From an uncultured Candidatus Bathyarchaeia archaeon (lineage in GTDB: Archaea; Thermoproteota; CALKCG01; B24): a stretch of DNA of 63,022 bases. Shown here piece after piece: positions 22,068 to 60,617 of the stretch; positions within the stretch are counted from its first letter, which is position 1, and the number at the start of each line of letters is the position of its first letter. The notes beneath the pieces were generated by a model. The model searched no databases, was not told the DNA's origin, and worked only from the letters and a program-made list of their open reading frames with translations. The translations under genes and the position numbers were made by a program. The stretch lies in contig CAZMSC010000007.1 in assembly GCA_964568845.1 (NCBI GenBank), forward strand, positions 1-63,022, given 5' to 3'.

Positions 22068-22322
22068 ATGAGTACTCAACAGAAAATAAAGTTTGATATA
22101 TTTCAACATGAGCTCGTACCTAAACATAGCATTTTAACGAAAGATGAGATGGATGATCTTTTAAGAAGATATCATATTGAGAAATATCAACTTCCGAAGA
22201 TTAGAGCCCGAGACCCAGCTGCTCTACTAATAGGTGCTAAGCCTGGAGATATTGTAAGGATTGTTAGAAGAAGCCCTACAGCCGGATTAGCCGTGTTTTA
22301 CAGGTTTGTTGTAGGTGGTTGA
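22068..22322 (+). CDS. rpoH: RNA polymerase subunit H (Rpo5)
   Basis: HELVPKHSILTKDEMDDLLRRY..LPKI...DP......GD(I)VRI(V)R.S.TAG is present. The gene lies directly upstream of rpoB. Confidence 0.85.
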   Translation: MSTQQKIKFDIFQHELVPKHSILTKDEMDDLLRRYHIEKYQLPKIRARDPAALLIGAKPGDIVRIVRRSPTAGLAVFYRFVVGG

Positions 22323-22323
22323 A

Positions 22324-25300
22324 ATGTATACGCGAGAAGATATGTGGTTTTTGATGAAAGCCTTCTTTCAAGAGAAAGGCTTAGTTAGACAGCATTTAGA
22401 CTCTTACAATGAATTTGTCGAGAAAGAGTTACAGCAGATTATAGACTCCATAGGTGGTGTAGAAATACCTACCAGTAGCGGTAGCCTATATATAAAGTTT
22501 GGTGAAATTAGCGTAGGTGATCCAAGGGTTACAGAGGTCGACGGCTCATCTCATAGTGTCACCCCACTTGAATGCAGACTTAGAAATCTCACTTATGCAG
22601 CACCCCTCTTTTTAGAGATGACGCCAATATTTAACGGTAAGACTATAACCACTGATACCATTTACATCGGCGATTTACCGATTATGCTTAAGTCTGAAAT
22701 CTGTCCTCTAAGTAAAATGACTAGGAGGGAGCTTTTAGAGATAGGTGAAGACCCCGACGACCCTGGTGGCTACTTCATAATAAACGGCTCAGAGAGACTT
22801 ATTATAGGTCTCGAAGACCTTGCCCCCAACAAGGTCATAGTGGATGTCGACAGAAGCACTTCTAGGTTTGTCTACAGGGCTAAAGTTTTCTCTACAACGG
22901 TAGGCTTTAGGACGAGGGTTGAAGTTAAGCTTAAACCTGATGGAGCTATATACGTTTCAATACCGGGTGTACCTGTAGAGCTTCCATTTGTAGTACTTAT
23001 GAAAGCCCTTGGAGTTGAAAAAGACAGTGAAATTGCAGATATGGTTTCACTAGACCCTGTGATCAGAGAGCAGCTTGAACCGTCATTCGATAAATCCCCT
23101 AGAATCGACAACGCTGAGAAGGCTATAGTTTTTATAGGTAATAAGATCGCATACGGTCAAGAGGAGGCGCGTAGAATACAGAGAGCCAATTCAATACTAG
23201 ATAATAATCTATTTCTACACCTAGGTACGAGCACTGAAGCTAGACCTACCAAAGCCAGATACCTAGCGGAAATAGCTTGTCGGCTTATAGAGCTTAAACT
23301 CGGCCTTAGAGCTGAGGATGATAAAGACCATTATGCTAACAAACGTATCAGACTTTCAGGTCCATTGCTTGGAGACCTATTCAGAACAATTTTTCGAGAT
23401 ATGATTAAAGATATGAGTTATCAACTGGAACGTCTATCTGCTAAGAAGCTTGTAAACGAATCTATTAAATTAGCCATCAGGCCAGGCATCCTCACAGAGA
23501 GGTTGCAACATGCTATTGCTACAGGCAATTGGGGTAGGAATAGAGTTGGTGTCAGCCAGCTCGTAGATAGGACGAATATACTGTCAACACTTAGCCACTT
23601 GCGTAGACTACAATCTCCTTTAAGCAGAAGCCAACCAAACTTTGAAGCCAGAGAACTCCATTCAACACATTTCGGTAGACTATGCCCAGTCGAAACACCA
23701 GAAGGGTCAAACTGCGGTCTTGTTAAGAACCTAGCCCTCATGGCTACGATATCAGTATCAGCGGATACAGATCATGTTTGTAAAGTTTTAAAGGATCTAG
23801 GATGCATCCCTGTTGAAGACGCAGATAAGGAGGCCCGTATTAGAGGCGTAAAGGTTTACATTAATGGAACACTAAGCTTCTACACTTTGAAGCCGGAGAA
23901 GCTTGTAAGAGATTTTATACGATATCGACGTAGAGGACGCGTAAGCATTGAAGTAAATATAGCATATCTTAAGGCTAAGAATGAGGTTCAAGTTAACTGT
24001 GACGCAGGTAGATGTAGAAGACCTCTAATAGTCGTTGAAAATGGCTCTCCAATGCTTAAACAAGAGCATTTGAATGCTTTAAAGAGGGGGCTATTAAAGT
24101 GGGACGACCTAGTAAAGATGGGCGTCATAGAGTATCTAGACGCCGAAGAAGAGGAGAATGCTTACATAGCTTTAAGACCTGAAGACATTAAACCTGAGAC
24201 AACTCATTTAGAGATATGTCCCTCTACTATTCTTGGAATATGCGGCTCGATCATACCTTTTGCTGAACACAACCATTCACCTAGAAACAGCTATGAAGCA
24301 GCTATGGCTAAACAAGCTATAGGCGTATATGCAACAAACTACTTTCTAAGGATGGATTCTAGAGCACACTTCCTACATTATCCTCAGAAACCTATTGTAG
24401 AAACCAAATCTATGGAAGTTATGGGTTTCCACAAAAGACCGACTGGCCAGAATATGGTAGTCGCTATTTTAACAATGGGCGGGTATAACATGGAGGATGC
24501 TATAATATTCAATAAACACTCTATAGAGAGGGGTTTGGCAAGGTCCTCATTCTTCCAACTGTATGAGGCCGAATGTTACCAATATATGGGAGGGGAGAAG
24601 GACGCCATCGAAATACCGTCAAGTGGGATGAGAGGTTATATGGGTGATGAATACTATAAGGTTTTAGAGGAGGATGGAATAGCCAGTGTTGAAAGTGAGG
24701 TTCAAGGTGGTGACGTTTTAATCGGTAGGACAAGCCCACCCAGGTTCATAGAGGAGTATCGGGAATTAGAAGCTAAAGGTCCATCTAGAAGAGATACTTC
24801 AGTAGTCTTAAGACCGTCTACAAGGGGGATTGTAGATACAGTTATACTAACTGAAACGTCTCAAGGCAATAAAATAGTTAAAGTGAGGGTCAGAAGCAAT
24901 AGGATACCTGAAATAGGGGATAAGTTTGCATCCAGACACGGTCAAAAGGGTGTCATAGGGATGATCTATCCCTCTGAAGATATGCCGTTTACGGAAGATG
25001 GAGTTGTCCCGGACGTTATAATAAATCCGCACGCTTTTCCATCTAGGATGACTGTAGGTCAACTTCTAGAGTCGTTATTCGGTAAAGCCGCCGCTCTTAT
25101 GGGTAGACCTGTAGACGGTACTGCATTTCAGGAGGAAAAAATCGAGGATATAGAAGCTGTGTTAAAACGTTATGGTTTTGAACCCACTGGTAGAGAAGTC
25201 ATGTATAGCGGTTTAACAGGTGAGAAGCTCGAGGCTAAGGTTTACATAGGTCTTGTCTACTATCAGAGGCTTCACCATATGGTCGCCGATAAAATACACG

Positions 25301-25653
25301 CTAGAGCTAGAGGGCAGGTTCAAATGCTTACAAGACAGCCGACGGAAGGTAGAGCGAGGGGAGGAGGGTTAAGATTTGGTGAAATGGAGAGAGATTGCTT
25401 GATAGGTTACGGTGCAGCTATGCTCATTAAAGATAGGATGCTGGAAGAGTCGGATAAGTTTACGGCATACGTTTGTGCTAAATGTGGGCTCTTAGCTTAC
25501 TATGACTCTAAAACTAATAAACATGTCTGTAGAATTTGTGGAGACGGCACTAAAATTTATCCAGTAGTCATGCCTTACGCATTTAAGTTGCTGCTTCAGG
25601 AGCTTATGAGCATGTGCATTGCCCCTAGAATCGTAGTTGAGGAGGGAATTTAA
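22324..25653 (+). CDS. rpoB: RNA polymerase subunit B (Rpo2), unsplit
   Basis: The ORF has full-length collinearity, with GKFASRHGQKG, GEMERDC and a C-terminal CxxCG..CxxC zinc ribbon. The ATG at 22324 lies 1 nt after the rpoH stop. The track ORF begins at a GTG at 22315. Confidence 0.95.
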   Translation: MYTREDMWFLMKAFFQEKGLVRQHLDSYNEFVEKELQQIIDSIGGVEIPTSSGSLYIKFGEISVGDPRVTEVDGSSHSVTPLECRLRNLTYAAPLFLEMTPIFNGKTITTDTIYIGDLPIMLKSEICPLSKMTRRELLEIGEDPDDPGGYFIINGSERLIIGLEDLAPNKVIVDVDRSTSRFVYRAKVFSTTVGFRTRVEVKLKPDGAIYVSIPGVPVELPFVVLMKALGVEKDSEIADMVSLDPVIREQLEPSFDKSPRIDNAEKAIVFIGNKIAYGQEEARRIQRANSILDNNLFLHLGTSTEARPTKARYLAEIACRLIELKLGLRAEDDKDHYANKRIRLSGPLLGDLFRTIFRDMIKDMSYQLERLSAKKLVNESIKLAIRPGILTERLQHAIATGNWGRNRVGVSQLVDRTNILSTLSHLRRLQSPLSRSQPNFEARELHSTHFGRLCPVETPEGSNCGLVKNLALMATISVSADTDHVCKVLKDLGCIPVEDADKEARIRGVKVYINGTLSFYTLKPEKLVRDFIRYRRRGRVSIEVNIAYLKAKNEVQVNCDAGRCRRPLIVVENGSPMLKQEHLNALKRGLLKWDDLVKMGVIEYLDAEEEENAYIALRPEDIKPETTHLEICPSTILGICGSIIPFAEHNHSPRNSYEAAMAKQAIGVYATNYFLRMDSRAHFLHYPQKPIVETKSMEVMGFHKRPTGQNMVVAILTMGGYNMEDAIIFNKHSIERGLARSSFFQLYEAECYQYMGGEKDAIEIPSSGMRGYMGDEYYKVLEEDGIASVESEVQGGDVLIGRTSPPRFIEEYRELEAKGPSRRDTSVVLRPSTRGIVDTVILTETSQGNKIVKVRVRSNRIPEIGDKFASRHGQKGVIGMIYPSEDMPFTEDGVVPDVIINPHAFPSRMTVGQLLESLFGKAAALMGRPVDGTAFQEEKIEDIEAVLKRYGFEPTGREVMYSGLTGEKLEAKVYIGLVYYQRLHHMVADKIHARARGQVQMLTRQPTEGRARGGGLRFGEMERDCLIGYGAAMLIKDRMLEESDKFTAYVCAKCGLLAYYDSKTNKHVCRICGDGTKIYPVVMPYAFKLLLQELMSMCIAPRIVVEEGI

Positions 25654-25655
25654 GC

Positions 25656-28600
25656 ATGGTATTAGAAACACATAGAAGTTTAACTGGAATAAAGTTCGGC
25701 TTACTTTCACCGCATGAAATTAGAAAAATGTCTGTTGTAGAAATTCGAGCAGCTGATACATATGATGAAGATGGCTTACCAATACCGACCGGTCTTATGG
25801 ATAATAGGCTTGGCACGTTGGAGCCTAGACAGAGGTGTGCGACATGCGGAAATACCGCAGCGTCATGCCCTGGACATTTTGGACACATAGAGCTTGCGGT
25901 CCCCATAATACACGTTGGCTTCGTTAAGTATGTTCAAGAGCTTCTAACAATAACATGCAGAGAATGTGGTAGAATTCTCATTCCAACAGATAAAATTGAA
26001 GAGCTTCAGAGTAGGATGGAGCAACTTAAGAAGGTATTCGGAGAAGTTCCAAAGGATTTCTTCGATAGCATTAAGAAGGAGGCTAGAAAAAGGTCAGAGT
26101 GTCCCCACTGTGGAAGCACTCAATATCATATAGAGCTCATAAAACCCACGTCATTCTATGAGCATCAGAAAGACGGAGGCGTTACTAGGCTAGATTCAAG
26201 CATTATAAGAAGTAGACTTGAAAGGATACCTGACGAAGACCTTAAGCTTCTGGGATACGACCCATCTTTGGCGAGGCCTGAATGGGTGATCCTTCAAGCC
26301 CTTCCAGTTCCGCCAGTATACGTCAGACCATCTATAACGCTTGAAACTGGTATAAGGTCTGAGGATGATTTAACCCATAAACTTGTAGATATAATACGTA
26401 TTAATGAGAGGCTTAAAGAAGCTGTTTCAAGCGGAGCCCCGACGGTTATAAGGGAGGAGCTTTCAGACCTTCTCCAGTACCATGTAACCACCTATATAGA
26501 TAACGAGACTTCGGGAATCCCACCATCCAGACATAGGTCTGGCAGAGCGCTTAAAACTTTAAGTCAGAGGCTTAAAGGGAAGGAGGGAAGGTTTAGGTTA
26601 AACCTCACTGGTAAAAGGGTCGACTTCTCAGCTAGAACAGTCATATCTCCTGACCCGTATCTAAGTATAGATGAAGTGGGTGTCCCAATAGACGTAGCTA
26701 AGAAGCTTACGGTTTCTGAACGGGTCACCCCTTGGAATGTAGAAGAGATGAAAAAGCTTGTTATAAACGGCCCTGACAATTATCCCGGAGCGCTCTACGT
26801 AACTAGACCCGACGGTAGGAAAATCAGGCTCGACTTCGTAGCTGACAGGAGTAAACTGGCAGATGAACTGCAACCTGGCTACACGGTTGAGCGACATATT
26901 AGAGATGGAGATATCGCGTTGTTTAACCGGCAACCATCGCTTCATAGAATATCGATAATGGCGCATAGAGTTAAAATTCTACCTTATAAGACTTTTAGGC
27001 TTCACTTAGCTGTGTGCATACCGTATAATGCTGACTTTGACGGGGATGAGATGAACCTTCACATCCCTCAGAGTGAGGAAGCTAGATCAGAAGCCCGTCT
27101 ACTCATGCAGGTTCAAGATCAGATAATATCTCCCAGATATGGGGCACCTATAATAGGTTCAACGAGGGACTTCCTGACGGCAGCGTACCTCCTCACGCGG
27201 AAAGATACATATGTCAATAGGGAGCAACTACATACTCTTCTAGCAGCTATAAGTTACAATGGCGACATCCCTCCGCCTGCTAAAACAGAGCCGGAGCCAC
27301 TATGGAGCGGTAAACAGGTTTTCAGTCTACTTCTACCGAAAGACTTTAACTACTTTGGAAGAGCAGCCGTATGTAAACATAAACATACATCTCCGGATGA
27401 AGACTGCCCCTTAGAAGGTGTGGTTGTTGTTAGAAATGGGCAGTTGATTAAAGGAGTTATAGATAAGAATTCTATAGGGGCTGAGAAAGCGGAAACATTG
27501 TATCATAGAATCGTTAGAGACTACGGCACGGCTTTTGCAGCAGACTTCCTCAATAAACTATGTAGGCTACTAAACACATTTATAACGATTAGAGGCTTTA
27601 GCTTTTCTCTTGACGAGCTAAACTTACCTGAAAATGTCAGAGAATCTATACGCCAGGTTATAGAAGAGTCTGAAAAGACAGTTCACCAGTTAATTGACGA
27701 GTATAAAAAAGGCACATTGAGAAGGATTCCTGGAAAGACTATGGAAGAGTCGCTTGAGATGCTTATAATGAACGAGCTTTCTAAAGCGAGAGACCGTTGT
27801 GATGAAATCGCCTCCTCTTCATTGCATTTAGACAACCAAGGTATAGTAATGGTTAGATGTGGGGCTAGAGGGTCTGAGCTTAATATTGGCCATATGACTG
27901 CTTGTCTAGGTCAGCAGTCTGTAAGAGGTAGGAGAATTTCATATGGTTATCTTGAAAGAGCCTTACCTCATTTTAAATGGGGCGATCAAAGTCCGAAGGC
28001 CAGAGGATTCATAGAGTCGTCTTTCTATATGGGTCTATCTCCTATAGAGTTCTTCTTCCACTCAATGGCGGGTAGAGAAGGTTTAATCGATACAGCCGTT
28101 AGAACTCAGCAGAGCGGTTATATGCAGAGGAGGCTTATTCATGCGCTTGAATTCCTGAGGGTTGAATACGATGGAACTGTTAGGACAACCGACGGTGAAA
28201 TAGTACAGTTTAAGTACGGTGAAGATGGAGTAGACCCGTCCAAGAGCGATCATGGTAAAGCTGTAAATCTCCAACGTCTGTTGGAGAGGATGGGCATCAA
28301 AGAAGCTGCCTCCCCTCTAAAACTCAGTGAAATTAATTGGATCTTGGAGAAGTATCGTACTAGACTTACACACTTCTACACTTCCAGCCTTAGAAAGCTG
28401 ATACATGATAAGCGCTTAACTAGAGAAGATGCAATTAGACTTGTAGAGGCTACTGTAGCGGAACTTGAAAAATCTCAAGTAGACCCCGGAGAAGCCGTTG
28501 GAGTTGTAGCGGCTCAATCTATAGGTGAACCTGGTACGCAAATGACCCTCAGGGTATTCCACTTTGCCGGTGTTAGAGAGAGGGATGTAACCTTAGGATT

Positions 28601-29486
28601 ACCAAGGCTTTTGGAAATCGTTGACGCTAGGAAGAATCCATCAACACCGATAATGACGATAAGGCTCGATAAAGAACATCGCGTCGATAAAGATAAAGCT
28701 TTAAAGGTAGCTCAATCCCTCACCTATACTACAGTAAGCGACTTGACGGCTAAGGGCGAATACCGAATATATTTGGAGGAAGGGGTTGTTAGGGTTAAAA
28801 TCGACAGCTCTCTTATGGAGAGTAGAGGGGTGACTACTGAAGATTTAAAGAATTTAACGATTAGCGGTGCCTCGTTGGAGTTTTCAGGTGACGAGCTTAT
28901 AATTAAGCCCAAGTCCGCTATGGATATTTTAGTGTTAAAAAGGCTTATTAGTAGAGTGATGAAGCTTCCTGTAAAAGGAATGCCTGGGATCAACAGGGTT
29001 CAAGTTGTTATGGAAGGAGATGAATGGGTTATCCAAGCCGACGGGTCGAATCTAAATAAAGTCGTTCAGGTTCCAGGTGTAGATCCAACTAGGACATTAA
29101 CTAACAACATATATGAGATCTATGAAACGCTCGGTGTTGAAGCGGCCAGAAACGCCATCATAAGGGAGGCTAAAGATGTTTTTGAAGGTATAGGTGGTGG
29201 CTTAGATCTTGATATTAGACACCTCATGCTTGTGGCAGACGTTATGACAGCCACGGGTAGGATACGTCAAGTAGGTAGACATGGTGTGACTGGAGAAAAA
29301 TCGAGTGCATTAGCTAAAGCGGCGTTTGAAATAACTGTTTCAAGTATTGTAGATGCTGCACTGAGAGGGGTTGAAGATACTCTTAAAGGCGTTACGGAGA
29401 ACATCATAGCTGGTCAAGACATGAAGGTTGGAACCGGTATAGTTGACATATATATGACACCAAATCCGCCCTCAAGAGGTGAGTGA
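25656..29486 (+). CDS. rpoA: RNA polymerase largest subunit, A' and A'' parts fused in one ORF (Rpo1)
   Basis: The N-terminal zinc motifs, [10 protein letters not shown] (catalytic), the bridge-helix region and the A''-type trigger-loop region [29 protein letters not shown] all lie in one 1276-codon frame with no stop at the usual A'/A'' boundary (about 28.23-28.33 kb). Confidence 0.95.
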   Translation: [1276 protein letters not shown]

Positions 29487-36485: not shown

Positions 36486-37154
36486 TTGAAAAAAATGGAA
36501 ATAAGAAAAATAGATTTTCGTTTGGGTAGCCAAAGCCTCGCTCTTGAGGTCCCTCCATTTTACTTAAACTTTGAAAAGAGAAGCTTCAGCTCTATTATGA
36601 CTAGAGGAGGGTCGCAATTTAAATGTAGGAGAGCCCTGTTTTACGTTTACATCTCTAGGGAGAATCAACTCTCCAAACTTTTGCTGATTAAAGCTTTACA
36701 TCCCTCCCTCTACATTCCACGCTCGCTTAAAGTAAATGAAGAAATAGGAAGAGAAGAGGTCAACGAATTCATAGACTCTGTAAAATACATTGAAAACAAG
36801 TGGAAGTACATTGACTCCGGTTTATGGAGGAGGAACTTCAACGGCTGCGGTGTCTACATGGTTTTAATAATAGGTGAGAACCGATGGACAGTACGTCCCA
36901 TCGTCTCTAAAGAGGGCTTAGAAGGATATGGTGTAGAAATACCAGTAGATGCTAAAAGAGATGAGGGCTTCTTAGAAGAGCTCACGGAAGATGAGAAGAA
37001 AGGTTTGGAAGTTCACAAGCATGTTCAGAATAGGCATTTCCACTTCACAGTATTCGGTATTGAAAGATTCATAGAGTTAGTTAAAGAATGGGATTATTAC
37101 TTCGCCAATAAAGAAGTATGGAAGCAGAGCGTGAGGATAACACACCTTGAATGA
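36486..37154 (+). CDS. Hypothetical protein (orphan by eye)
   Basis: It is a 222-codon ORF between two long A/T-rich spacers. No motif was recognised. The start may be the ATG at 36495. Confidence 0.4.
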   Translation: MKKMEIRKIDFRLGSQSLALEVPPFYLNFEKRSFSSIMTRGGSQFKCRRALFYVYISRENQLSKLLLIKALHPSLYIPRSLKVNEEIGREEVNEFIDSVKYIENKWKYIDSGLWRRNFNGCGVYMVLIIGENRWTVRPIVSKEGLEGYGVEIPVDAKRDEGFLEELTEDEKKGLEVHKHVQNRHFHFTVFGIERFIELVKEWDYYFANKEVWKQSVRITHLE

Positions 37155-42031: not shown

Positions 42032-42460
42032 TTAAACACCTTTCGCTAACTTCTCCGAAGAATACAGTTTTAAATACTTTCTACCAGCTAATATTAAAAT
42101 CGCTATAAAAATGACTGTTAAAATTAAGGCGAAAATCAGCAGAATGCCGCCGTAAGGGCCTGCTGCAACACCTATAGGTATTGGCAGGAGTAATATTATA
42201 AAGCTTAAACCACTTAGCTCCTCGGATAAAATTGCTAGTATGATCGTGACAAGTATCCCTAGAAAAGCCAAGACGAAGCCTAAAACCATTATCTTAAAAC
42301 CAGCTCCGCATTTTAACTCTCCTTCAATAGGGCTTTTCTCTACGCATTTTATGCAAAATTCTAAGCTTGGGTTGAAACATGACGTGCATACTCTAGACCC
42401 GCAATTTTGACACACATACTTAGCATTACGGATGCCGCAGATCTCGCATTTGACGGTCAT
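42032..42460 (-). CDS. Zinc-ribbon protein fused to a DUF131-like membrane domain
   Basis: An N-terminal CEICG..CQNCG..C..C...C.KC is followed by TM helices and LLLPIPIGVAAGPYG. Confidence 0.5.
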   Translation of the reverse strand: MTVKCEICGIRNAKYVCQNCGSRVCTSCFNPSLEFCIKCVEKSPIEGELKCGAGFKIMVLGFVLAFLGILVTIILAILSEELSGLSFIILLLPIPIGVAAGPYGGILLIFALILTVIFIAILILAGRKYLKLYSSEKLAKGV

Positions 42461-51225: not shown

Positions 51226-52329
51226 ATGTCGGATAAGGTAACAATATCCCTCATAAAAGCAGACGTAGGCTCCCTAGCTGGACACCACATAGTCTACCGA
51301 GAGCAGATAGAACTTGCTAGGAAGAAATTGCAGGAAGCTAAGGAGAAAGGGCTTCTAATCGACTACTACGTATTTAACGCTGGCGACGACCTCGAGCTTT
51401 TGATGACGCATAGGGAAGGGGAGAGTAGCCCTAAGATACACGGTTTAGCTTGGGATACTTTTAAAGAAGTTACTGAGAAGGTTTCTAGACCTCTTAAGCT
51501 TTATGCAGCTGGTCAAGACCTCCTCGTAGAAGCGTTTTCAGGAAACGTTAAAGGCATGGGTCCTGGAGTAGCGGAAATGGAGATAGAGGAGCGTAGAAGT
51601 GAGCCTATAGTTGTTTTTGCCGCTGATAAGACTGAGCCTGGCGCTTGGAACCTAATACTATACAAGATTTTCGCGGATCCTTGGAATACCGCAGGTCTCA
51701 TACTAGACCCTGTCATGCACGACGGCTTCACGTTCAGAGTTATGGACGTTCAGAAGGGTGAGTGCATAGACCTATCTACTCCAAGTGAAATCTACAGTCT
51801 ACTGGCCCTCATAGGTACAACAGGTAGATACGTTATCGAGAGGATCTGGAGGAATTCAGATAAATTGATAGCCGCGGTCGCCAGCGTTACAAGGCTCTCT
51901 CTAATAGCTGGTAGGTATGTAGGTAAAGACGACCCAGTTTGCATCGTGAGATGTCAACATGGACTCCCGGCAGTCGGCGAAGCTCTAGCACCATTCTTCA
52001 CACCCCACTTCGTAGCTGGTTGGATGAGGGGGTCGCATTATGGCCCTCTAATGCCCGTAGGCTTAAAAGACAGCAGATGCTCATTCTTCGATGGACCGCC
52101 TAGAGTAGTAGCTTTAGGCTTTCAGCTTTCAGCCGGAAAGCTTGTAGGGCCAGCTGATCTGTTTGAAGACGCAGCCTTCGACCACGCCAGAAGAACAGCT
52201 CTACAGATGGCTGAATTGATCAGGAGAAACGGACCAATAGCTCCAGCAATACTTGGAATGGAAGAACTAGAGTATACTGGTATCGTTGAGACTTTAAAGA
52301 AGCTTCAAAGCAGATTCTTTAAAGTATAA
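51226..52329 (+). CDS. fbp: Fructose-1,6-bisphosphate aldolase/phosphatase (class V FBPase)
   Basis: ISLIKADVGSLAGHH is present, and the protein is collinear with the archaeal bifunctional FBPA/P over its full length. Confidence 0.9.
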   Translation: MSDKVTISLIKADVGSLAGHHIVYREQIELARKKLQEAKEKGLLIDYYVFNAGDDLELLMTHREGESSPKIHGLAWDTFKEVTEKVSRPLKLYAAGQDLLVEAFSGNVKGMGPGVAEMEIEERRSEPIVVFAADKTEPGAWNLILYKIFADPWNTAGLILDPVMHDGFTFRVMDVQKGECIDLSTPSEIYSLLALIGTTGRYVIERIWRNSDKLIAAVASVTRLSLIAGRYVGKDDPVCIVRCQHGLPAVGEALAPFFTPHFVAGWMRGSHYGPLMPVGLKDSRCSFFDGPPRVVALGFQLSAGKLVGPADLFEDAAFDHARRTALQMAELIRRNGPIAPAILGMEELEYTGIVETLKKLQSRFFKV

Positions 52330-52345: not shown

Positions 52346-52352
52346 TTTTTTT
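52346..52352 (+). terminator. Oligo-T tract after fbp
   Basis: The sequence tcccattttttt lies 17 nt after the fbp stop. Confidence 0.4.
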
Positions 52353-52454
52353 AATTTTAAAAGATTTAAATGTATTAAATATCATTAGCTCTCAGTATTT
52401 TTAGTCTTATATAGTTTATTAGATTAATCTATTTAAAAAAATAGTCAGTTAACC

Positions 52455-52463
52455 TTAAAAATA
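52455..52463 (+). promoter_or_regulatory. TATA-like box positioned for the RNA candidate
   Basis: The sequence ttaaaaata is centred about 27-29 nt upstream of the first paired base (52488) of the structured element. Confidence 0.35.
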
Positions 52464-52487
52464 GAGTCTTGACAAAAATTAACCTCG

Positions 52488-52757
52488 GTCAAAAGGTAGC
52501 GTCGTCTAAAGTCGAAAGGTCCCGCTCAACGGAGATTGTTACGTCCCTTTAACCCGCCCTTCGGGGTGGTTTAAAGGTACGTAATAAATCCCAGCGAGCG
52601 AGGCTAAGTAGATAGGTCGTGCGGGGTGTTTCCAAGTCGAAAGGCTTGGAAACGGGCTAACCGCAAGGTTAGCTTAAACCTGCAGAAATGACGTCCATAA
52701 CCACCCCTCGGGTTGGTTATGGAAGGTGGGAGGATCGGCCTCTCTCCGCTACCTGAC
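52488..52757 (+). ncRNA. Structured ncRNA candidate of unassigned family
   Basis: The terminal helix pairs GUCA-(AAA)-GGUAGCG at 52488-52501 with CGCUACC-UGAC at 52747-52757. It encloses four hairpins. Hairpin A is 52531-52592 with a UUCG loop, about 25 bp with bulges. Hairpin B is 52628-52653, 11 bp with a GAAA loop. Hairpin C is 52656-52673, 7 bp with a GCAA loop. Hairpin D is 52694-52723, about 13 bp. G.U pairs (G52556.U52567 and U52637.G52644) work only on the + strand. No ORF is present. An oligo-T (tttt, 52766-52769) follows. The element is G+C-rich relative to the A/T-rich flanks. Confidence 0.6.
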
Positions 52758-52769
52758 AAGCGACATTTT

Positions 52770-53036
52770 CTAAACTCTATATATCAGAATGCTCCGTTGC
52801 CCTTTATCTGTTAAAAACCATTTAACGGGTCTACCTTTACGTTTAATGACAACCCCCTCTTTCTCCAGGTTCTTAATCTGTTTGAATAACGTCTGATAGC
52901 TTATACCCGTGGTTTTCGAGACCTCTTCTATGCTTGTGCATCCGCTTTTAAGGGCTTTTATTATTAAGGTTCTGGTTTTAAGTCCTCTATTCACATTCCG
53001 TATTACCGTTAAATGGGATTGCGGTTCATACTCCAT
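52770..53036 (-). CDS. Small winged-helix-turn-helix transcriptional regulator
   Basis: The 88-aa protein has ..IIKALKSGCTSIEEVSKTTGISYQTLFKQIKNLEKEGVVIKRKG..W.LT.KG, an ArsR/MarR-like wHTH layout. Confidence 0.55.
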   Translation of the reverse strand: MEYEPQSHLTVIRNVNRGLKTRTLIIKALKSGCTSIEEVSKTTGISYQTLFKQIKNLEKEGVVIKRKGRPVKWFLTDKGQRSILIYRV

Positions 53037-53379: not shown

Positions 53380-54402
53380 ATGTCTGAAAGACTCATCGAT
53401 GGGGATATCGTTAAGACAGAGGACGGATTCATCTTCTACGTTTTCGGCTATGAACACCCTGAGGATCGCTATATAACGTATTTAAAGTATGTGCCTGAGC
53501 GTTTTAAAAGCCTCTTTAAAATCGAGTTTCTACCGTGGGTTTGGAGGCTTGAGGAAGAAATATACGTAAGACCAGTTAACCTGTACAGTCCTGAGAATAT
53601 TCAGGAGATTGTAAGGGTTTTCAATGAGCGCTTCCCAAAATACGTATATGAATGTCCATACAATTCTAAAGTTTTAATATCTGTCCCTAGAGACATGGTG
53701 AGGTATACCTTTAAACCAGGGGAAGCGTTCTCCAGGCTTATGAGTAAAACCAACCGCCTTCCAGTGGAGAATGTAGCCGTTGAATGGATTAAGCTGATTT
53801 CTTCTGAGGCTGATGTTGATTTAAAAAGCTTCGGTATACACGGCTCTCTATGTCTAGGTATGACATCTGAAAAACCCGATGTAGACGTTGTCATATATGG
53901 TGGGTTAAACTTCAGAAAGGTGAGAAATACCGTGAGTAAATTAGTCTCTAAGGGCATTATAAAGTACATGTACGAGAACGAGTTCGATAAGTTTAGGAAG
54001 AATAAACTCTCCTACAAGGGTTTTAAAGTAGTCTTCAACGCCGTCAGGAAGCCTGATGAAATAAGAGATTTTTACGGTGCCTACAGGAGAATGCCTATAA
54101 AGACCGTGAAGTTTAGATGTATGGTTGAATCCGCTGAAGAGTCTTTCTTCAGACCAGCGATATATAGTATTTCAGAGTACAGGGCTGTCAACGAAGAGTC
54201 TAGGCTTCCCCCTGAGATGAGGCCTAGAGAAGTCGTTGTTATGGATAGCACATATAGAGGCTTAGCATATGAGGGTGATCTGCTTGAAGTTCAGGGGCTG
54301 TTAGAACGTGAAGTATCCACTTCAAGCAACGTTGAGAAATATAGAGTTGTAGTAGGCTCCGGTAGACCGGGTGAATACGTTCAAGTTAGGAAGCTGTACT
54401 AG
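53380..54402 (+). CDS. Pol-beta-fold nucleotidyltransferase with an OB-like C-terminal domain (paralog 1)
   Basis: The NTase signature is [24 protein letters not shown] (hG[GS]x10DxD). The N-terminal module is [33 protein letters not shown]. The C-terminal beta-rich segment (..FRCMVES....FRPAIYSI........[25 protein letters not shown]) looks OB-like. Confidence 0.6.
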
Positions 54403-54403
54403 A

Positions 54404-55471
54404 ATGAGATTGAGAGATAGAGACTACATAGTAGGTTTAAACGGTCTGATATTTAGAGTCTTGGGGTATTCTCATCCATCAGATGGATACGTGTGCGACC
54501 TTGAATACGTCCCCTCAAGCCTATACCGTTCTAATAACGCTAGAGCTCCAAGAGGATATGGCACTATATCCCATTACAAGCTTTACGGTGACGAGCCGTT
54601 TAAACTCATAAACGGTTGTTTTCCAGAATACAGGGTCTACTACAGGCCTTTAAATACATATCTACCGGGTGTTCCAGCAAACCTCATAGGCGAGGTTAAA
54701 CTTCCAAGAGGCGGTTTGACGAGGCTCATCAGCTCTTTAAGGGATGGGCTTTCAATAGCTCTAGAGAATCTCATCGGTATGGTTTTAGAGTCTTCGAAGT
54801 TGAGTCTAGGAGATTTCGGGGTCTTCGGCTCTCTACTCTTAAACTTCTATCATCCAGACTTCTCAGACTTCGACCTTATCGTTTACGGGTCTGAGAATTT
54901 GAGGGAGCTTAGAGATTGTTTAAGTGCACTCTACGATGGGCGTTTCCTTAGAAATGAGTTTGAATTCCCGTCTGAAGACTCACGTCTTAAATGGAAGTTT
55001 AAAAACTACCCTTACAGACTATTTATTCTTCATCAGAAGAGGAAGCTGATATATGCCATTTATAAGCCATCCGGCTTCAGACCGGTTAAAGTAGAGTTTG
55101 AACCTGTTAAGGGTTATGGAGAAATAGTGGATGAATACGGCTCTATAAAAAGCATCGTTAGGTTAGGGTGGTTTAAGGCTTTTGCAACAATACTCGACGA
55201 TTCTGAGGCGGCGTTTATGCCATCCATATACAAAGTTGAGGTTGAGAGTGTTGTAGAAGGATTCAAAGTAGATGATGTAAGACGTATAGTATCCTATGTG
55301 GAAGAATATAGGCTTCAAGCCTTCAAAGATGAACGGGTATACGTTGAAGGATGGCTTGAGAAAGTTGAAACCTCAACCGGGGCCTTCCATCAGATAGCCT
55401 TAACGTATGGTCCAAGATACTATGAGCAGACGTTATACTCCCTAGACCTGCTTTCATCTCCCTATTCCTGA
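54404..55471 (+). CDS. Pol-beta-fold nucleotidyltransferase with an OB-like C-terminal domain (paralog 2)
   Basis: It has the same architecture as paralog 1: RDRDYIVGLNGLIFRVLGYSHPSDGYVCDLEYVP, then FGVFGSLLLNFYHPDFSDFDLIVYG. I place the start at the ATG at 54404, 1 nt after the upstream TAG. The track ORF begins at 54371. Confidence 0.6.
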   Translation: MRLRDRDYIVGLNGLIFRVLGYSHPSDGYVCDLEYVPSSLYRSNNARAPRGYGTISHYKLYGDEPFKLINGCFPEYRVYYRPLNTYLPGVPANLIGEVKLPRGGLTRLISSLRDGLSIALENLIGMVLESSKLSLGDFGVFGSLLLNFYHPDFSDFDLIVYGSENLRELRDCLSALYDGRFLRNEFEFPSEDSRLKWKFKNYPYRLFILHQKRKLIYAIYKPSGFRPVKVEFEPVKGYGEIVDEYGSIKSIVRLGWFKAFATILDDSEAAFMPSIYKVEVESVVEGFKVDDVRRIVSYVEEYRLQAFKDERVYVEGWLEKVETSTGAFHQIALTYGPRYYEQTLYSLDLLSSPYS

Positions 55472-56932: not shown

Positions 56933-59551
56933 TTAGGTTTTCTCACCATAGGGCCTTATATGTTTTAACATTCCGGTGAAGCGCTTTCCTAATAGAGAAA
57001 TTGTGATAAAGCCTGAAATCGCAAAGACCATGGAGACTGCTCTAAGCATCTCCATTAAAAGTTGAGGTCTATATACTATAGTTATTGTAAGCGGCTTCTC
57101 TTCTCCGTTTTCAATATACCATCCATTGAAGAAGCCGTTGACCTTCACATGTTTTACGTCCCGTTGCTCTGTTCCGGTTAAAATATCTACTGGGTTGGGG
57201 TCTCTGATGTATAATCTCCATCCCGGATCAAACCACTCATTCAAGGCTATTAGAATCCTATCTTGGAAATGGTCAACCGTCACCTTGTAGTATGTAGGGT
57301 TTTCCTCTATATAGTCCAGTTTAGTATGGGAGACTTGCGTCACAGCGTCTTCTACATAAGCCTTGCTCTTAGGGTCGAATTCATCCTTTAAGAGGTTTTC
57401 AAAGATATCTCCCTCATATCTTAAAGCCTCTTTTACCAAGTAGATCTTCGACGTTTTAAATTCGTCTCTAAGCCTGTATACTGTGAATTGCTGATCGAAC
57501 TTTACGAATAATTCTAAAGGCGTAACTTCCGCCTCAACTCCTTTATCTAGGAAAATGCCGCCAACCTCCGCCTCTACTATTCCACCCGGCGGAGCATGCA
57601 TCGAGAAAACGATTGCAGCCACCCTCGACCTATCTAAACCAACGTCTAAGGTTGCGTCACTCAAACGTACTACTGCGAGGTTCCAACTCTGCTCCCTTAA
57701 ATCAAGCCTCCATGTAGCCCATCTGCCGAAAACGTCTTGGACCTGAATATCCGCTGTGTTTGAACCATTTACTTTAATCCAGAATTCCAAGTAGTTGTAT
57801 TCTAGCCAGTTCGATACTGCTGGGAGAGTATATGCAAAGCTGAATGTTCCATTAAAAGCTGGCTGTTCACTCGTCCATGACTCTCCGCATGCATATAAAT
57901 GGATTTCAGATCGAGCCTCCTCTACTTCTACATACCTGGCCTCAGCCTCATAATGTCTCTCCGGGTTGAAGTTTACGACCTGGATGAATCCTAAATCCCT
58001 CATAATTGGTTCAACGTCTTCAGACGATACGTTAACGACACCGTTCGCCAAGTTTGGGCTTACTATGAAGCTGTAGTTAAGCTTCGCCTCTATAAGACGT
58101 GGATTTACGGTTTGTACTCTGTCTTGGTCGATATCGTAATGGAGCACCACGAATCCGACGTCTAAGGCAGATAAGACCTTCCAGAACTCTGTTTTGCCAG
58201 TTAGATCGTTTAAGACTTTGAAATCGTAACCGTAGATTATTGGATTATTTAAGATTAAGTTTTCAACAGGCTTTTCATACCTTCTAGTACTCCAACTATA
58301 GTAGAATTCTCCACTTGTAATAGGCATGGTTAATACCCTGCAGTCTTCAAGTTGAAGGAGTTGGCTTAACTCCTCATATTGCTCTGGTACGTTTAAGCTA
58401 CTGGTCCATGAGAGTGGAGTTGTTAAGCCTTGATATATAACCATGCCCGAAACAAGTAAGAAGATAAAGGGTTTTACTAGATCGTACTCTCTAGCACAGT
58501 CTTCATCTATGACGAGCGATACGGATATGTAATCGCTAACCCTTTCAGAGAACCTTTTAGCTCCTAAAGCCACTAGTAGAGATATACATGTCGAAGTTAT
58601 GGCTAAGACGTCTGACGTTGCGTTTGATGTGACGATGGTCTGCGGGTCCATTAAAACTACCACCAGCGCTACAACTGCTAACGCCTGAACCAGGCTCAGC
58701 TTACCCGCCTCAAATAGCAGTAGAAACGTTGAAGCCGCTATGGGGAAGACCGTTAAACATAGGGGGCTGAAGCCTTCGACGTTTAAGCCTGGAGGTGTAG
58801 CTATCCACCAGGCATTCATGATAAGCCATGAAAACCCGGCTAACGTTAGAAACATAACCATCCACTTCAACCCTAAGGTTTTCCCGCGGGTTCTAACGAT
58901 AAAGTACGCCAGAACTGTCAGCGTTAAAGCTGTTAGATTGCCGAGTTTAATTAAAGCGCCTGAGAGTAGTGTGGATGCTAGAGCCGTGTAGAATCCGTAA
59001 GATATACTCCCCCTTTTATACGCCTCATCCACCGTTAAGAGGGCTAGGGGTGTTAAGACGTATAGAGCTGAAGCCTCTAAACCATGCCATAAACCTCTCA
59101 AAGCCACAGCAGACCCCAGGTATATGAGCATAGCTGTTAAACCGGCTAAACGGCTTCCGGAAAACCTCTTAGCCAGTATGTAAATAGGGCATCCGCCTAA
59201 AACCCATAGGGTTAGTAGAAGCGTAAAGCCAATCGCGTTTAGATCTGCCCCTAGGAGCCTCATGAAAGCTGGAAGCACGTATATCGTCGCAAAGGCTAAT
59301 CTGTCATTCGGCTTGCCAAGCTCATCTGAAATCCAGCCATACTTTAACACTTCAAAGTCGCGTTTTAAGACCTGGTGTAAATCCGTCAGCAGACCGTAGG
59401 GTAAACCACCCAAGAAAGTAGTATAAGCATATGTCAAAAACGCTACTACAAACACTATAGCTAAAGCCTCTAAAGCTCTCTCACTCTTCGGAGACAATGT
59501 TAAATTAATAGTCTGGAAGGCTTCAGATAAAAGTTTACTATGCTCTTCCAA
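56933..59551 (-). CDS. Large integral membrane protein with a C-terminal extracytoplasmic domain, a candidate GT-C-type glycosyltransferase
   Basis: The 872-aa protein has about 11-13 TM helices in its N-terminal ~350 aa, then a soluble beta-rich region and one C-terminal TM. It lies immediately downstream of an NDP-sugar-forming enzyme gene. No WWDYG-type motif was seen. Confidence 0.45.
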   Translation of the reverse strand: MEEHSKLLSEAFQTINLTLSPKSERALEALAIVFVVAFLTYAYTTFLGGLPYGLLTDLHQVLKRDFEVLKYGWISDELGKPNDRLAFATIYVLPAFMRLLGADLNAIGFTLLLTLWVLGGCPIYILAKRFSGSRLAGLTAMLIYLGSAVALRGLWHGLEASALYVLTPLALLTVDEAYKRGSISYGFYTALASTLLSGALIKLGNLTALTLTVLAYFIVRTRGKTLGLKWMVMFLTLAGFSWLIMNAWWIATPPGLNVEGFSPLCLTVFPIAASTFLLLFEAGKLSLVQALAVVALVVVLMDPQTIVTSNATSDVLAITSTCISLLVALGAKRFSERVSDYISVSLVIDEDCAREYDLVKPFIFLLVSGMVIYQGLTTPLSWTSSLNVPEQYEELSQLLQLEDCRVLTMPITSGEFYYSWSTRRYEKPVENLILNNPIIYGYDFKVLNDLTGKTEFWKVLSALDVGFVVLHYDIDQDRVQTVNPRLIEAKLNYSFIVSPNLANGVVNVSSEDVEPIMRDLGFIQVVNFNPERHYEAEARYVEVEEARSEIHLYACGESWTSEQPAFNGTFSFAYTLPAVSNWLEYNYLEFWIKVNGSNTADIQVQDVFGRWATWRLDLREQSWNLAVVRLSDATLDVGLDRSRVAAIVFSMHAPPGGIVEAEVGGIFLDKGVEAEVTPLELFVKFDQQFTVYRLRDEFKTSKIYLVKEALRYEGDIFENLLKDEFDPKSKAYVEDAVTQVSHTKLDYIEENPTYYKVTVDHFQDRILIALNEWFDPGWRLYIRDPNPVDILTGTEQRDVKHVKVNGFFNGWYIENGEEKPLTITIVYRPQLLMEMLRAVSMVFAISGFITISLLGKRFTGMLKHIRPYGEKT

Positions 59552-59738: not shown

Positions 59739-60617
59739 ATGAAGCTCTCTAAAACCGTAGTCTGCAAACTTCAACCGTCTGAAGAGGATGCAAAAACTTC
59801 CCGCCGCTCTTGAGGCTTTTCGCGATACCTGCAACTATATATCTAAGATAGCGTTTAAACGTAGAACCTTCAACCCCGTTGCTCTCCACCACATGGTCTA
59901 CCGTGAAACAGAGAGAAGTTCAAGCTTCCAGCAAACCTTGCCATAAGAGCTAGAGACAGGGTTGCTAAAGCTTACAAGCAAAGAAGAGACTGGCTTCTTA
60001 AGTTCACGAAGCTTTCGATGGATTTGGATGAGAGGCTTTTCAGCCCATGTGATGATCACCCGTATTTCCGCAGCGGAAATATTTTCTCCGCAGATTTCAG
60101 CAGCGGAAATCTCAACGCTTCTCCCTCCCCCAAGATTTTCCAAACCTCACCTCTAACAACTTCTTCAATAAACTTCCTCACATCATCCGCCATCTACAAG
60201 CCTAACGGAATCTACACTTCCACATCCACGCTTCAGAAGAGAGTTAAACCTGTGCTTGATACAGGCGACTACCAGAGAAAGCTTCCTGAAGATGCCAAGC
60301 CAACACATGCCGTCTTGGTTTACAGAAATAGAACCTTCTACCTCCACATCGCCATTGAAAGACAGGTTCCAAAGCCCAAAGGAAACAACCCTGCTGGCGT
60401 GGACACTGGAATGAGAAACCTTCTCGTAGCCTCTAACTACTTCAAGATTAAAGTCGGAGTTCTATCCGTAGCAGAATTAAACATAATAGAAGCCTGAATG
60501 GAGACTTCAGATGAGCCGTTATGATTCACCTGCAAGTCCACAGGCTTCAGCCGTGATTTCAACTGTAGTGACTCCAGACATAAAGGTCTCCACAACGTAA
60601 AGAGATCATTATATTAA
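59739..60617 (+). pseudogene. tnpB: IS200/IS605-family tnpB (OrfB) remnant, frameshifted and internally deleted
   Basis: The pieces read across three frames. They are MKLSKTVVCKLQPSEEDAKT, LPAALEAFRDTCNYISKIAFKRRTFNPVALHHMVYRE, and KFKLPANLAIRARDRVAKAYKQRRDW...HAVLVYRNRTFYLHIAIERQVPKPKGNNPAGVDTGMRNLLVASN (RuvC-I). After a gap comes FTCKSTGFSRDFNCSDSRHKGLHNV, a decayed zinc-finger/RuvC-III tail. The central RuvC-II region is missing. Confidence 0.7.
60064..60111. repeat. Two adjacent hairpin-forming palindromes inside the tnpB remnant
   Basis: The first, atttccgc-a-gcggaaat (60064-60080), has perfect 8-bp arms. The second, tccgcagatttcagcagcggaaatc (60087-60111), carries gatttc/gaaatc and tccgc/gcgga arms. 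Both share the ccgcag..gcggaaat core. Confidence 0.6.

Follow-up and report, generated by a model that had tools for sequence, protein, structure and literature searches.

A putative stand-alone gene for a circular, structured RNA with bulge-helix-bulge ends in hot-spring Bathyarchaeia

The canonical bulge-helix-bulge (BHB) motif, hBHBh′, is the signal of the archaeal tRNA-splicing endonuclease EndA (PMC6379350, PMC4731332). In Thermoproteus, the gene for the RNA of the signal recognition particle (SRP) has a TATA box and a short leader, its BHB is cut by recombinant EndA and the product is circular (PMC4731332). EndA and the ligase RtcB were searched for and identified in the archaeal genomes of a study that included Bathyarchaeia, for which circular rRNAs were also reported (PMC12918454). 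Seven BHB-flanked circles were found in Haloferax, one of them outside tRNA and rRNA (PMC7714728), and the circles of Sulfolobus came from known RNAs or were small (PMC3326292). Here we analysed a stretch of 63,022 nucleotides (nt) from an uncultured Candidatus Bathyarchaeia archaeon (assembly GCA_964568845.1, contig CAZMSC010000007.1, positions 1 to 63,022; hereafter the window) and, in it, an intergenic RNA element at 52488-52757 on the + strand. To our knowledge, few natural EndA substrates are described beyond tRNA and rRNA, namely an intron of the cbf5 mRNA, one 5′ untranslated region (UTR) of Haloferax and the Thermoproteus SRP RNA, all of which come from known genes. We give a probability of about 0.7 to the reading that the element is a stand-alone, lineage-specific non-coding RNA (ncRNA) gene, whose transcript would be cut by EndA and closed by ligation to a circle of about 266 nt.

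The element lies between a gene for an FBP aldolase/phosphatase (FBPase; 51226-52329, PF01950, E 1e-170, stop codon TAA at 52327-29) and a winged helix-turn-helix (wHTH) gene (52770-53036, - strand) that converges on its 3′ end. An earlier note, made from the letters of the window, had picked it out as a G+C-rich block in an A/T-rich spacer, and this feature is real. The G+C content of the block is 0.50-0.55, compared with 0.16-0.25 in the upstream spacer. The + strand of 52480-52765 folds with a minimum free energy (MFE) of -133.9 kcal/mol, compared with -90.6 ± 4.6 kcal/mol for 200 dinucleotide shuffles (z = -9.37, no shuffle equal). The - strand of the block folds more weakly (z = -5.05, dinucleotide shuffles).

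The ends of the RNA read 5′-UCG-GUCA-AAA-GGUAGCG...CGCUACC-UGAC-AAG-CGA-3′ (hyphens separate the elements). They match the canonical hBHBh′, in which a 4-bp helix lies between an outer helix and an inner one (here called P1), with a 3-nt bulge on each of the opposite strands in a staggered arrangement. The 11-bp terminal helix described earlier has to be redrawn accordingly. Its two parts, of 4 bp (52488-91/52754-57) and 7 bp (52495-501/52747-53), both exist, but they are split by a 3-nt AAA bulge and belong to the BHB. All 13 of the 13 tabulated homologues, and four loci from JGI metagenomes, show this geometry exactly. The outer helix has 3-5 bp in most homologues, and P1 has 7 bp, or 5 bp in L013 and L014 (L numbers denote the collected loci). 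In an alignment of the ends only, double changes were seen at five of the seven pairs of P1 and at the three inner pairs in the outer helix, and one pair of the central helix (columns 9-35) was AU in seven sequences, GC in four and GU in one. The covariation score was 0.412, compared with 0.235 for shuffles (0/500 reached the observed score) and 0.04-0.13 for slid partners.

A generic BHB scan covered the window and 82 loci. Under a strict filter, the RNA ends were the only fully intergenic BHB without G.U pairs in the window, and the family members ranked far highest in folding-energy density among all BHB-like candidates. When the scan was filtered by bulge composition and energy density, the family members were left together with one outsider, L050:3998-4288. 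It was rejected as a BHB-framed RNA, being GC-rich coding sequence with a z of -1.7.

In the canonical 37/38 geometry of tRNA introns, the cut falls after the second nucleotide of each bulge. By this rule, the excised RNA, and hence the circle, is predicted to comprise 52494-52759 (266 nt), and the predicted products of the homologues measure 265-322 nt. The predicted circle junction, A52759/A52494, reads ...GCUACCUGACAA/AGGUAGCGUC... (equal to ...CUACCUGACAA/AGGUAGCG...) and falls in a GAYAA apical loop capping P1. The predicted leader and trailer are about 9 nt each and unconserved. Since the removed pieces are so tiny and unconserved, the excised part would be the product.

Syntenic loci were gathered through FBPase homologues and by scanning one genome per GTDB species with a 340-aa neighbour protein, and homologues of the RNA were searched for by BLAST, pattern and energy scans. 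The RNA was present at 16 further loci: in 11 Bathyarchaeia genomes of GTDB, at two loci reached through FBPase homologues, and on four JGI contigs, one of which duplicates a GTDB sequence. BLAST revealed it at 12 loci besides the window, and the sequences form two clades. Clade A comprises the window, L007-L012 and L002 (8 sequences), and clade B comprises L003 and L013-L016 (5 sequences). The pattern scan of JGI metagenomes gave four clade A loci, all at the same genomic locus. The RNAs of clade A are 67-90% identical to the window RNA. All named RNA-bearing records are hot-spring metagenome-assembled genomes (MAGs) of Candidatus Bathyarchaeia or Bathyarchaeota, and the RNA is invariably located between the FBPase and wHTH genes. 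No second copy was found in the window, in the collected loci or in JGI contigs beyond the FBPase/wHTH locus. The RNA was not found in lineages with an FBPase about 75% identical, where the FBPase gene abuts the wHTH gene or TIM without a spacer, nor at 60+ more distant loci around the 340-aa gene. Similarly, 32 more distant loci showed no analogous structured RNA in front of the 340-aa gene. In the related loci L004-L006 and L087-L090, the FBPase/wHTH spacer is empty or absent. The absence from related lineages implied that the RNA is a lineage-restricted insertion into this spacer.

The earlier note had staked its RNA claim on conservation and covariation at related loci, and both were observed. 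In clade A, RNAalifold predicted 95 pairs, and 95.9% of cells were paired when the BHB was written in (96.4% in the P2 model described below). Twenty pairs were changed on both sides, compared with 1-5 when the 3′ partners were slid by 1-3 columns, and 0 of 500 shuffles matched this. In clade B, 96.0% of cells were paired and 36 pairs were doubly changed, compared with 3-7 when slid; 22 of these lie among the 43 pairs that make up one segment of a long-range helix, which has about 55 bp and a branched tip. Invariant G.U pairs (columns 225-246, 226-245 and 302-316) fix the + strand, as had been argued from G.U pairs valid on that strand alone.

The TATA-like box and the oligo-T that had been reported around the RNA are both in place (Table 1). 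The TATA-like blocks read AGTCAGTTAAYCTTAAAAA in clade A and TTTCCAACAGACTTAAAT in clade B, and the distance from the TATA start to the G of the central helix is 30-37 nt in 13 of 13 homologues. About 22 nt after the promoter block are unconserved, both in clade A loci and in clade B. Because archaeal transcription usually starts about 25 nt downstream of the TATA box, the start is predicted at about 52484-87, that is, 0-6 nt before the BHB. In the homologues, a tract rich in T or in pyrimidines is found within a few nt after the BHB. As a T7 run of its own lies downstream of FBPase, the RNA would not be the 3′ UTR of that gene.

We propose the following route of maturation. Transcription would start about 25 nt past the TATA-like box, at 52485 or a few nt before it, and would stop at the T-run 52766-69. 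The transcript ends, as the sequence and its covariation show, pair into the canonical BHB and the 7-bp P1. EndA would cut both bulges, after A52493 and A52759, and remove the leader and trailer. By analogy with tRNA introns, pre-rRNAs and the Thermoproteus SRP RNA, RtcB would then ligate the released piece into a covalently closed circle of 266 nt.

Table 1. Features of the predicted RNA gene and its surroundings, in positions of the window
Feature	Position	Strand	Remark
T7 run	52346-52352	+	17 nt past the FBPase stop; likely FBPase terminator
Promoter block AATAGTCAGTTAACCTTAAAAAT with TATA-like box TTAAAAAT (52455-62)	52440-52462	+	Near-identical across clade A
BHB outer helix, 5′ strand UCG	52485-52487	+	Pairs with 52761-63; compensatory changes (columns 3-5/42-44)
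BHB central 4-bp helix, 5′ strand GUCA	52488-52491	+	48/48 cells paired (12 distinct homologues)
BHB 5′ bulge AAA	52492-52494	+	3 nt in 13/13; predicted EndA cut after A52493
P1, 5′ strand GGUAGCG	52495-52501	+	Pairs with 52747-53; 5/7 pairs doubly changed across the two clades
Proposed P2, 5′ strand CGUC	52503-52506	+	With GACG 52690-93; 100% paired, invariant in clade A
GUC + GAA, tentative sarcin-ricin-like internal loop below P3	52511-52516	+	GUC pairs with GAU 52611-13; GAA opposite AGUA 52607-10
P3, long variable arm with UUCG cap (52560-63)	52518-52605	+	Folds and alignments
AGUA + GAU, 3′ side of the sarcin-ricin-like loop and of the GUC/GAU helix	52607-52613	+	Invariant in clade A
P4 domain: stem 52621-25/52679-83 with adjacent hairpins 52628-53 (GAAA) and 52654-75 (GCAA)	52621-52683	+	Covariation in all three helices (helices 9-11)
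Proposed P2, 3′ strand GACG	52690-52693	+	Clade A alignment
P5 hairpin, loop CUCG 52707-10	52694-52723	+	4 pairs with changes on both sides (helix 12)
P6 hairpin GG-U-GGGAGG/AUCGG/CCUCUC-UC	52725-52746	+	Pairs invariant; backed by position and energy
P1, 3′ strand CGCUACC	52747-52753	+	Ends-only alignment
BHB central helix, 3′ strand UGAC	52754-52757	+	Ends-only alignment
BHB 3′ bulge AAG	52758-52760	+	3 nt in 13/13; predicted EndA cut after A52759
BHB outer helix, 3′ strand CGA	52761-52763	+	Ends-only alignment
T-run UUUU, likely archaeal terminator	52766-52769	+	Directly adjoins the wHTH stop codon (convergent gene)

We read the architecture common to both clades as P1-P2-(long variable arm P3 + P4)-P2′-P5-P6-P1′. 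The four hairpins listed in the earlier note are all present with their caps, UUCG (52560-63), GAAA (52639-42), GCAA (52663-66) and CUCG (52707-10), and a fifth hairpin, which was absent from it, was found at 52725-46 with the loop AUCGG. Clade B has a GGAGG...CUCC hairpin in the position of this last one, P6. Both loops of the P4 domain remain GNRA, switching between GAAA and GCAA. The junction strands of clade A are invariant and purine-rich. An 11-mer, AAGUCGAAAGG, occurs twice in the RNA, at 52509-52519 (a conserved junction strand) and at 52634-52644 (the tip of the GAAA hairpin).

In clade A, P2 together with the GUC/GAU helix was favoured over the arrangement given by RNAalifold, a mini-hairpin plus a lower P4 stem, which breaks in L002 and L012. 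At the position of P2, clade B has CCCC/GGGG, or CCUC/GAGG in L013 (columns 19-22/239-242). The P2 model is preferred rather than proven, because its own pairs scarcely vary, though they match the covarying CCCC/GGGG of clade B. The GUC/GAU helix, in which the pair of columns 28-183 is GU in five sequences and AU in three, was recovered in the MFE folds of both L007 and L002. By inspection, GAA/AGUA was tentatively assigned as a sarcin-ricin-like loop.

P3 is 56 nt longer and branched in L002, L012 and L084, and in clade B it is a branched helix of about 70 bp, the long-range form of which is backed by covariation. Compared with the window, the branched insertion of about 56 nt sits at the tip of P3 (about 2625-2700 in L002; columns 73-132 of alignment A3 in L002, L012 and L084) and resembles an expansion segment. 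In the clade B locus L003 (4744-4781 and 4879-4914), and likewise in L015, each P3 strand is near-palindromic (ACAUCUCUAUAGAUCUCUAUAGGGAUGU and its reverse complement) and could also fold locally; this palindromy is absent from the other clade B members. Modelling suggests that the product combines a near-perfect four-way junction with a three-way junction and is almost fully paired and very stable. When the RNA was folded as a circle, the model kept the architecture and the fold was still stable at 75°C. The MFE circles of clade B had 78-84% of their nucleotides paired.

Several observations weigh against the reading as a gene for a circular RNA. First, if G.U pairs are permitted, a single sequence often shows BHB-like geometry by chance, with 8900 matches in about 0.6 Mb, so the case rests on conservation and not on the motif alone. 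Second, the outer helix has just 1-2 bp in L009 and L010, which corresponds to the relaxed HBh′ form. Third, both MFE and RNAalifold favour a P1 extended by 1-2 pairs over the bulged central helix. The enzyme would thus have to capture the BHB, which is the normal case for this motif. Fourth, the identity between the RNAs of the two clades is 0.51, which is at the random level (0.49-0.53 for shuffles), at a between-clade protein identity of 85% for FBPase and about 44% for the 340-aa protein. Therefore, the homology of clades A and B was deduced from synteny, their BHB ends, the spacing of the promoter and the common architecture. In addition, the conserved neighbour genes are also present without the RNA, and a search through spurious ORFs for transcript-derived contigs in a collection of 5.8 billion proteins gave no match. 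Finally, the function that we suggest is held with low confidence: the circle might be an exonuclease-proof, thermostable, protein-binding scaffold of a lineage-specific ribonucleoprotein (RNP). We favour a scaffold because selection keeps the helices, the GNRA/UNCG caps, the near-perfect junctions and the purine-rich junction strands of clade A. An antisense regulator is disfavoured because there is almost no conserved single strand and no target in the window; for the two longest conserved junction strands, none was found within its 63 kb. A ribozyme or a universal RNA is disfavoured because no core is common to the clades and the interior evolves fast, and a peptide product because no open reading frame (ORF) is conserved.

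Some of these points would also fit a linear RNA. The structured ncRNA would then be genuine and run from start to terminator, with the BHB-like base as an uncut part of the fold. The circle is predicted here from sequence, and both the thermodynamic preference for an extended P1 and the very short outer helix of some homologues agree with a linear molecule. However, every homologue checked retains the 4-bp/3-nt/3-nt geometry exactly, though almost all other nucleotides differ between the clades, and a nucleotide-exact, one-sided internal loop has no obvious alternative reason. Moreover, EndA cuts such motifs wherever they are present (PMC4731332, PMC7714728). It seems to us that a linear RNA is unlikely, though it deserves to be taken seriously.

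It might also be argued that the element is an orphan or selfish BHB intron-like element, which was inserted into the FBPase/wHTH spacer and whose circle is a functionless by-product. The restriction to two clades, the empty or absent spacer in L004-L006 and L087-L090, the very fast evolution of the interior and the variable arm lengths could be explained in this way. However, the RNA is single-copy and strictly syntenic in 17 of 17 loci, there is no host gene with exons to rejoin, and it has its own conserved promoter at a fixed spacing. Purifying selection on pairing is strong (96% of cells paired, 56 doubly compensated pairs), the junction strands of clade A are invariant, and no match to the RNA was found in IMG/VR or in phage and archaeal-virus genomes. 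A selfish origin is thus quite improbable in our opinion, and we retain the reading as a stand-alone gene for a circular RNA.

The RNA could not be assigned to a known family, in line with the earlier note. With Rfam 15 at gathering score, the whole window gave tRNA-Arg only. In a 521-nt search of the locus at E ≤ 10, chance fragments of the microRNA (miRNA) type were returned and no model of RNase P, SRP, rRNA or small nucleolar RNA (snoRNA). The homologous loci (10 loci at gathering score; E ≤ 10 / E ≤ 1) gave no match beyond chance miRNA, PhotoRC or telomerase fragments. In the literature, we found no paper describing this RNA family.

A highly divergent or minimal RNase P RNA has very little in its favour. 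The string GAAAGGUCC at 52514-22 loosely resembles the P4 segment CR-I, CAGAAAU at 52683-89 loosely resembles the ACAGAA of CR-V, and a P4-like pairing of GAAAGG-U-CC with GGCCU had been suggested before. This pairing has to be given up: GGUC at 52518-21 covaries with the base of its own P3 arm (A3 columns 35-38/172-175, A-U in L009 and L011), and the candidate 3′ strand consists of the loop and stem of P6, where the loop varies freely. The CR-I (GAGGAAAGUCC) and CR-V (ACAGAAnnCGGCUUA) motifs are absent, no RNase P model of any type matched at E ≤ 10, CAGAAA is CUAAAA in L008-L010, and neither string occurs in clade B. Unlike a universal catalytic RNA, the RNA is missing in close relatives and has random identity between clades with 85% FBPase identity.

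A divergent SRP RNA, circularised through its BHB as in Thermoproteus, is just as hard to sustain. It would account for the same biogenesis signals, the similar size (266-322 nt) and the two adjacent GNAR-compatible tetraloop hairpins on a three-way junction. However, the Archaea_SRP model gave no match at E ≤ 10, the two hairpins pair perfectly and have none of the internal loops of helix 8, and inspection showed no AGCA/GGAA signature, as had been stated earlier. The two-hairpin arrangement is missing at that position in clade B, and the Thermoproteus RNA retained all conserved SRP features (PMC4731332). An element acting in cis at the DNA level, such as a bidirectional terminator or a cluster of protein-binding palindromes, would suit the position between convergent genes and the many inverted repeats, but is scarcely credible given that the invariant G.U pairs work on the + strand alone, the z-score of that strand is about twice that of the - strand, the RNA has its own promoter block, the T7 run of FBPase lies 140 nt upstream, and relatives do without any spacer.

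Further candidates were tried and rejected. An intron in a host RNA did not agree with the flanks, which are made up of a promoter (about 30 nt upstream), a leader lacking conservation and a T-run, with no tRNA, rRNA or ORF on the + strand. A C/D box or H/ACA small RNA, for which the earlier note had likewise seen no boxes, was dismissed because Rfam gave no match and inspection revealed no conserved RUGAUGA/CUGA boxes or large internal loops. The omega-RNA of IS200/IS605 elements has been reported to circularise in archaea (PMC12558985); the neighbours here are FBPase and wHTH, with no tnpB or iscB. A resemblance of three short strings to the 3′ end of 16S rRNA was dropped, as the strings are not kept in clade B. 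It had also been stated that there is no ORF on either strand. In fact, short ORFs of 51 aa (-) and 33 aa (+) exist in the RNA block, but the homologues conserve neither the frame nor the length of any of them, rolling-circle frames included.

The window, a metagenome contig (ENA ERZ27245638), is core chromosome as a whole, with the genes for RNA polymerase B and A, EF-1alpha, PolB and several aminoacyl-tRNA synthetases. Both RNA polymerase B (22315-25653, + strand, 1112 aa) and A (25656-29486, + strand, 1276 aa) are unsplit, with Rpb1 domains 1-5 of the latter within one ORF. In most archaea, subunit A is split into A′ and A″. Four ORFs of the window had no Pfam match at E ≤ 1e-5: 56933-59551 (- strand, 872 aa), 36486-37154 (+ strand, 222 aa), 42032-42460 (- strand, 142 aa) and 60018-60497 (+ strand, 159 aa).

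The wHTH protein has 88 aa and is TrmB/ArsR-like. Its gene is convergent with FBPase at every RNA-bearing locus, and it directly overlaps the FBPase end in an RNA-less Nitrososphaerota MAG (L004:11170-11463). The protein may be a regulator of gluconeogenesis rather than a partner of the RNA. Downstream, the 340-aa protein (53380-54402, + strand) and a 366-aa NTP_transf_2 protein (54371-55471, + strand) are paralogues with 27-30% identity by tblastn. The pair is conserved in Bathyarchaeia, Odin-, Baldr- and Hydrothermarchaeota and Methanobacteria. The 340-aa protein has no Pfam or NCBIfam match; it carries a nucleotidyltransferase signature of the Pol-beta type and a C-terminus weakly like EF-Tu domain 2, and it belongs to an uncharacterised family. 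Functional coupling of the RNA to its neighbours was rejected, as the 340-aa/366-aa pair is widespread without the RNA and the wHTH gene travels with FBPase. The neighbour genes gave no match to defence systems.

A second BHB-framed element, of about 75 nt, was observed at five other Bathyarchaeia loci (L078:1988-2081 on the + strand, L072 about 1978-2065, L075 about 1843-1932, L018 about 2550-2644 and L074 about 1967-2075). It has the form GUUGG-GUGG-AAA-GGUUUGGAGA, about 50 nt, UCUCCAAACC-CCAC-UAA-CCAAC, with a conserved pyrimidine-rich stretch UCUCCUUUCUCCCCCU in its interior; we do not infer homology to the window RNA. The element is intergenic, about 35 nt past a + strand ORF and between convergent genes, and its unconstrained MFE fold yields the BHB (z = -3.5). 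The segment L078:1993-2076 was tried as a tRNA-intron control for the cut-site rule and discarded, as it is not a tRNA. The element may be another stand-alone substrate of EndA, and its presence hints that the strategy of BHB framing is used more than once in Bathyarchaeia.

A broader claim is that Bathyarchaeia encode mini-genes, composed of promoter, BHB, cargo, BHB and terminator, with a closed structured RNA as their sole product, and that the present RNA is the first of a class of circular ncRNAs that archaea make from stand-alone genes for a lineage-specific RNP function. We consider the arguments for and against this claim to be evenly balanced. If it is true, new structured RNAs of circular form evolve in archaea as genes in their own right, and the locus is a natural, minimal expression cassette for circular RNA that works at high temperature. 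It would also offer a way into the RNA biology of an abundant, uncultivated archaeal class. As a practical warning, annotation with covariance models misses such RNA genes entirely.

The maturation route is known from other archaeal RNAs, and what is new is the RNA family and the proposed arrangement in which a circle would be the sole product of a gene. The closest system is the circular SRP RNA of Thermoproteus tenax and T. uzoniensis (Plagens et al. 2015, PMC4731332), which also has a stand-alone ncRNA gene, its own TATA box and a BHB formed by leader and trailer, and whose cutting by the endonuclease and presumed ligation by RtcB give a functional circle of about 300 nt; in our case, the circle is predicted from sequence. 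However, the Thermoproteus RNA is a permuted universal RNA that keeps all SRP motifs, and circularisation repairs the permutation. The window RNA is not visibly permuted, its BHB lies on the natural closing stem, its leader is a few nt long, and it has no family match. Circular pre-16S and pre-23S intermediates and circular mature 23S rRNA of archaea (PMC12918454; PMC7714728) likewise have a BHB in the terminal stem, from which a structural RNA is excised and circularised. They are excised from long precursors, whereas the window RNA, with 266-322 nt, would come from a monocistronic mini-gene. Archaeal introns (in tRNA, rRNA, cbf5 mRNA and the HVO_1309 5′ UTR) share the hBHBh′ signal and the expected circular product, but their host exons are rejoined into a functional RNA, and all that could count as "exons" here is a leader of a few nt, which is not conserved, and a short trailer. 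Archaeal RNase P RNA (types A, M and T) is similar in size and has a multi-helix fold, a terminal stem and tetraloop caps; the window RNA differs in having no P4 pseudoknot, no CR-I/CR-V and no covariance-model match, and in being lineage-restricted and fast-evolving. The rod-shaped, viroid-like circular RNAs are also comparable, with 250-400 nt, a circular form (predicted here) and extreme base pairing, and in clade B the helix of about 55 bp with its branched tip accounts for over half of the molecule. Unlike them, the window RNA has a fixed, syntenic chromosomal locus, a cellular promoter and no ribozyme motifs, and it would be matured by EndA and RtcB and not through rolling-circle replication.

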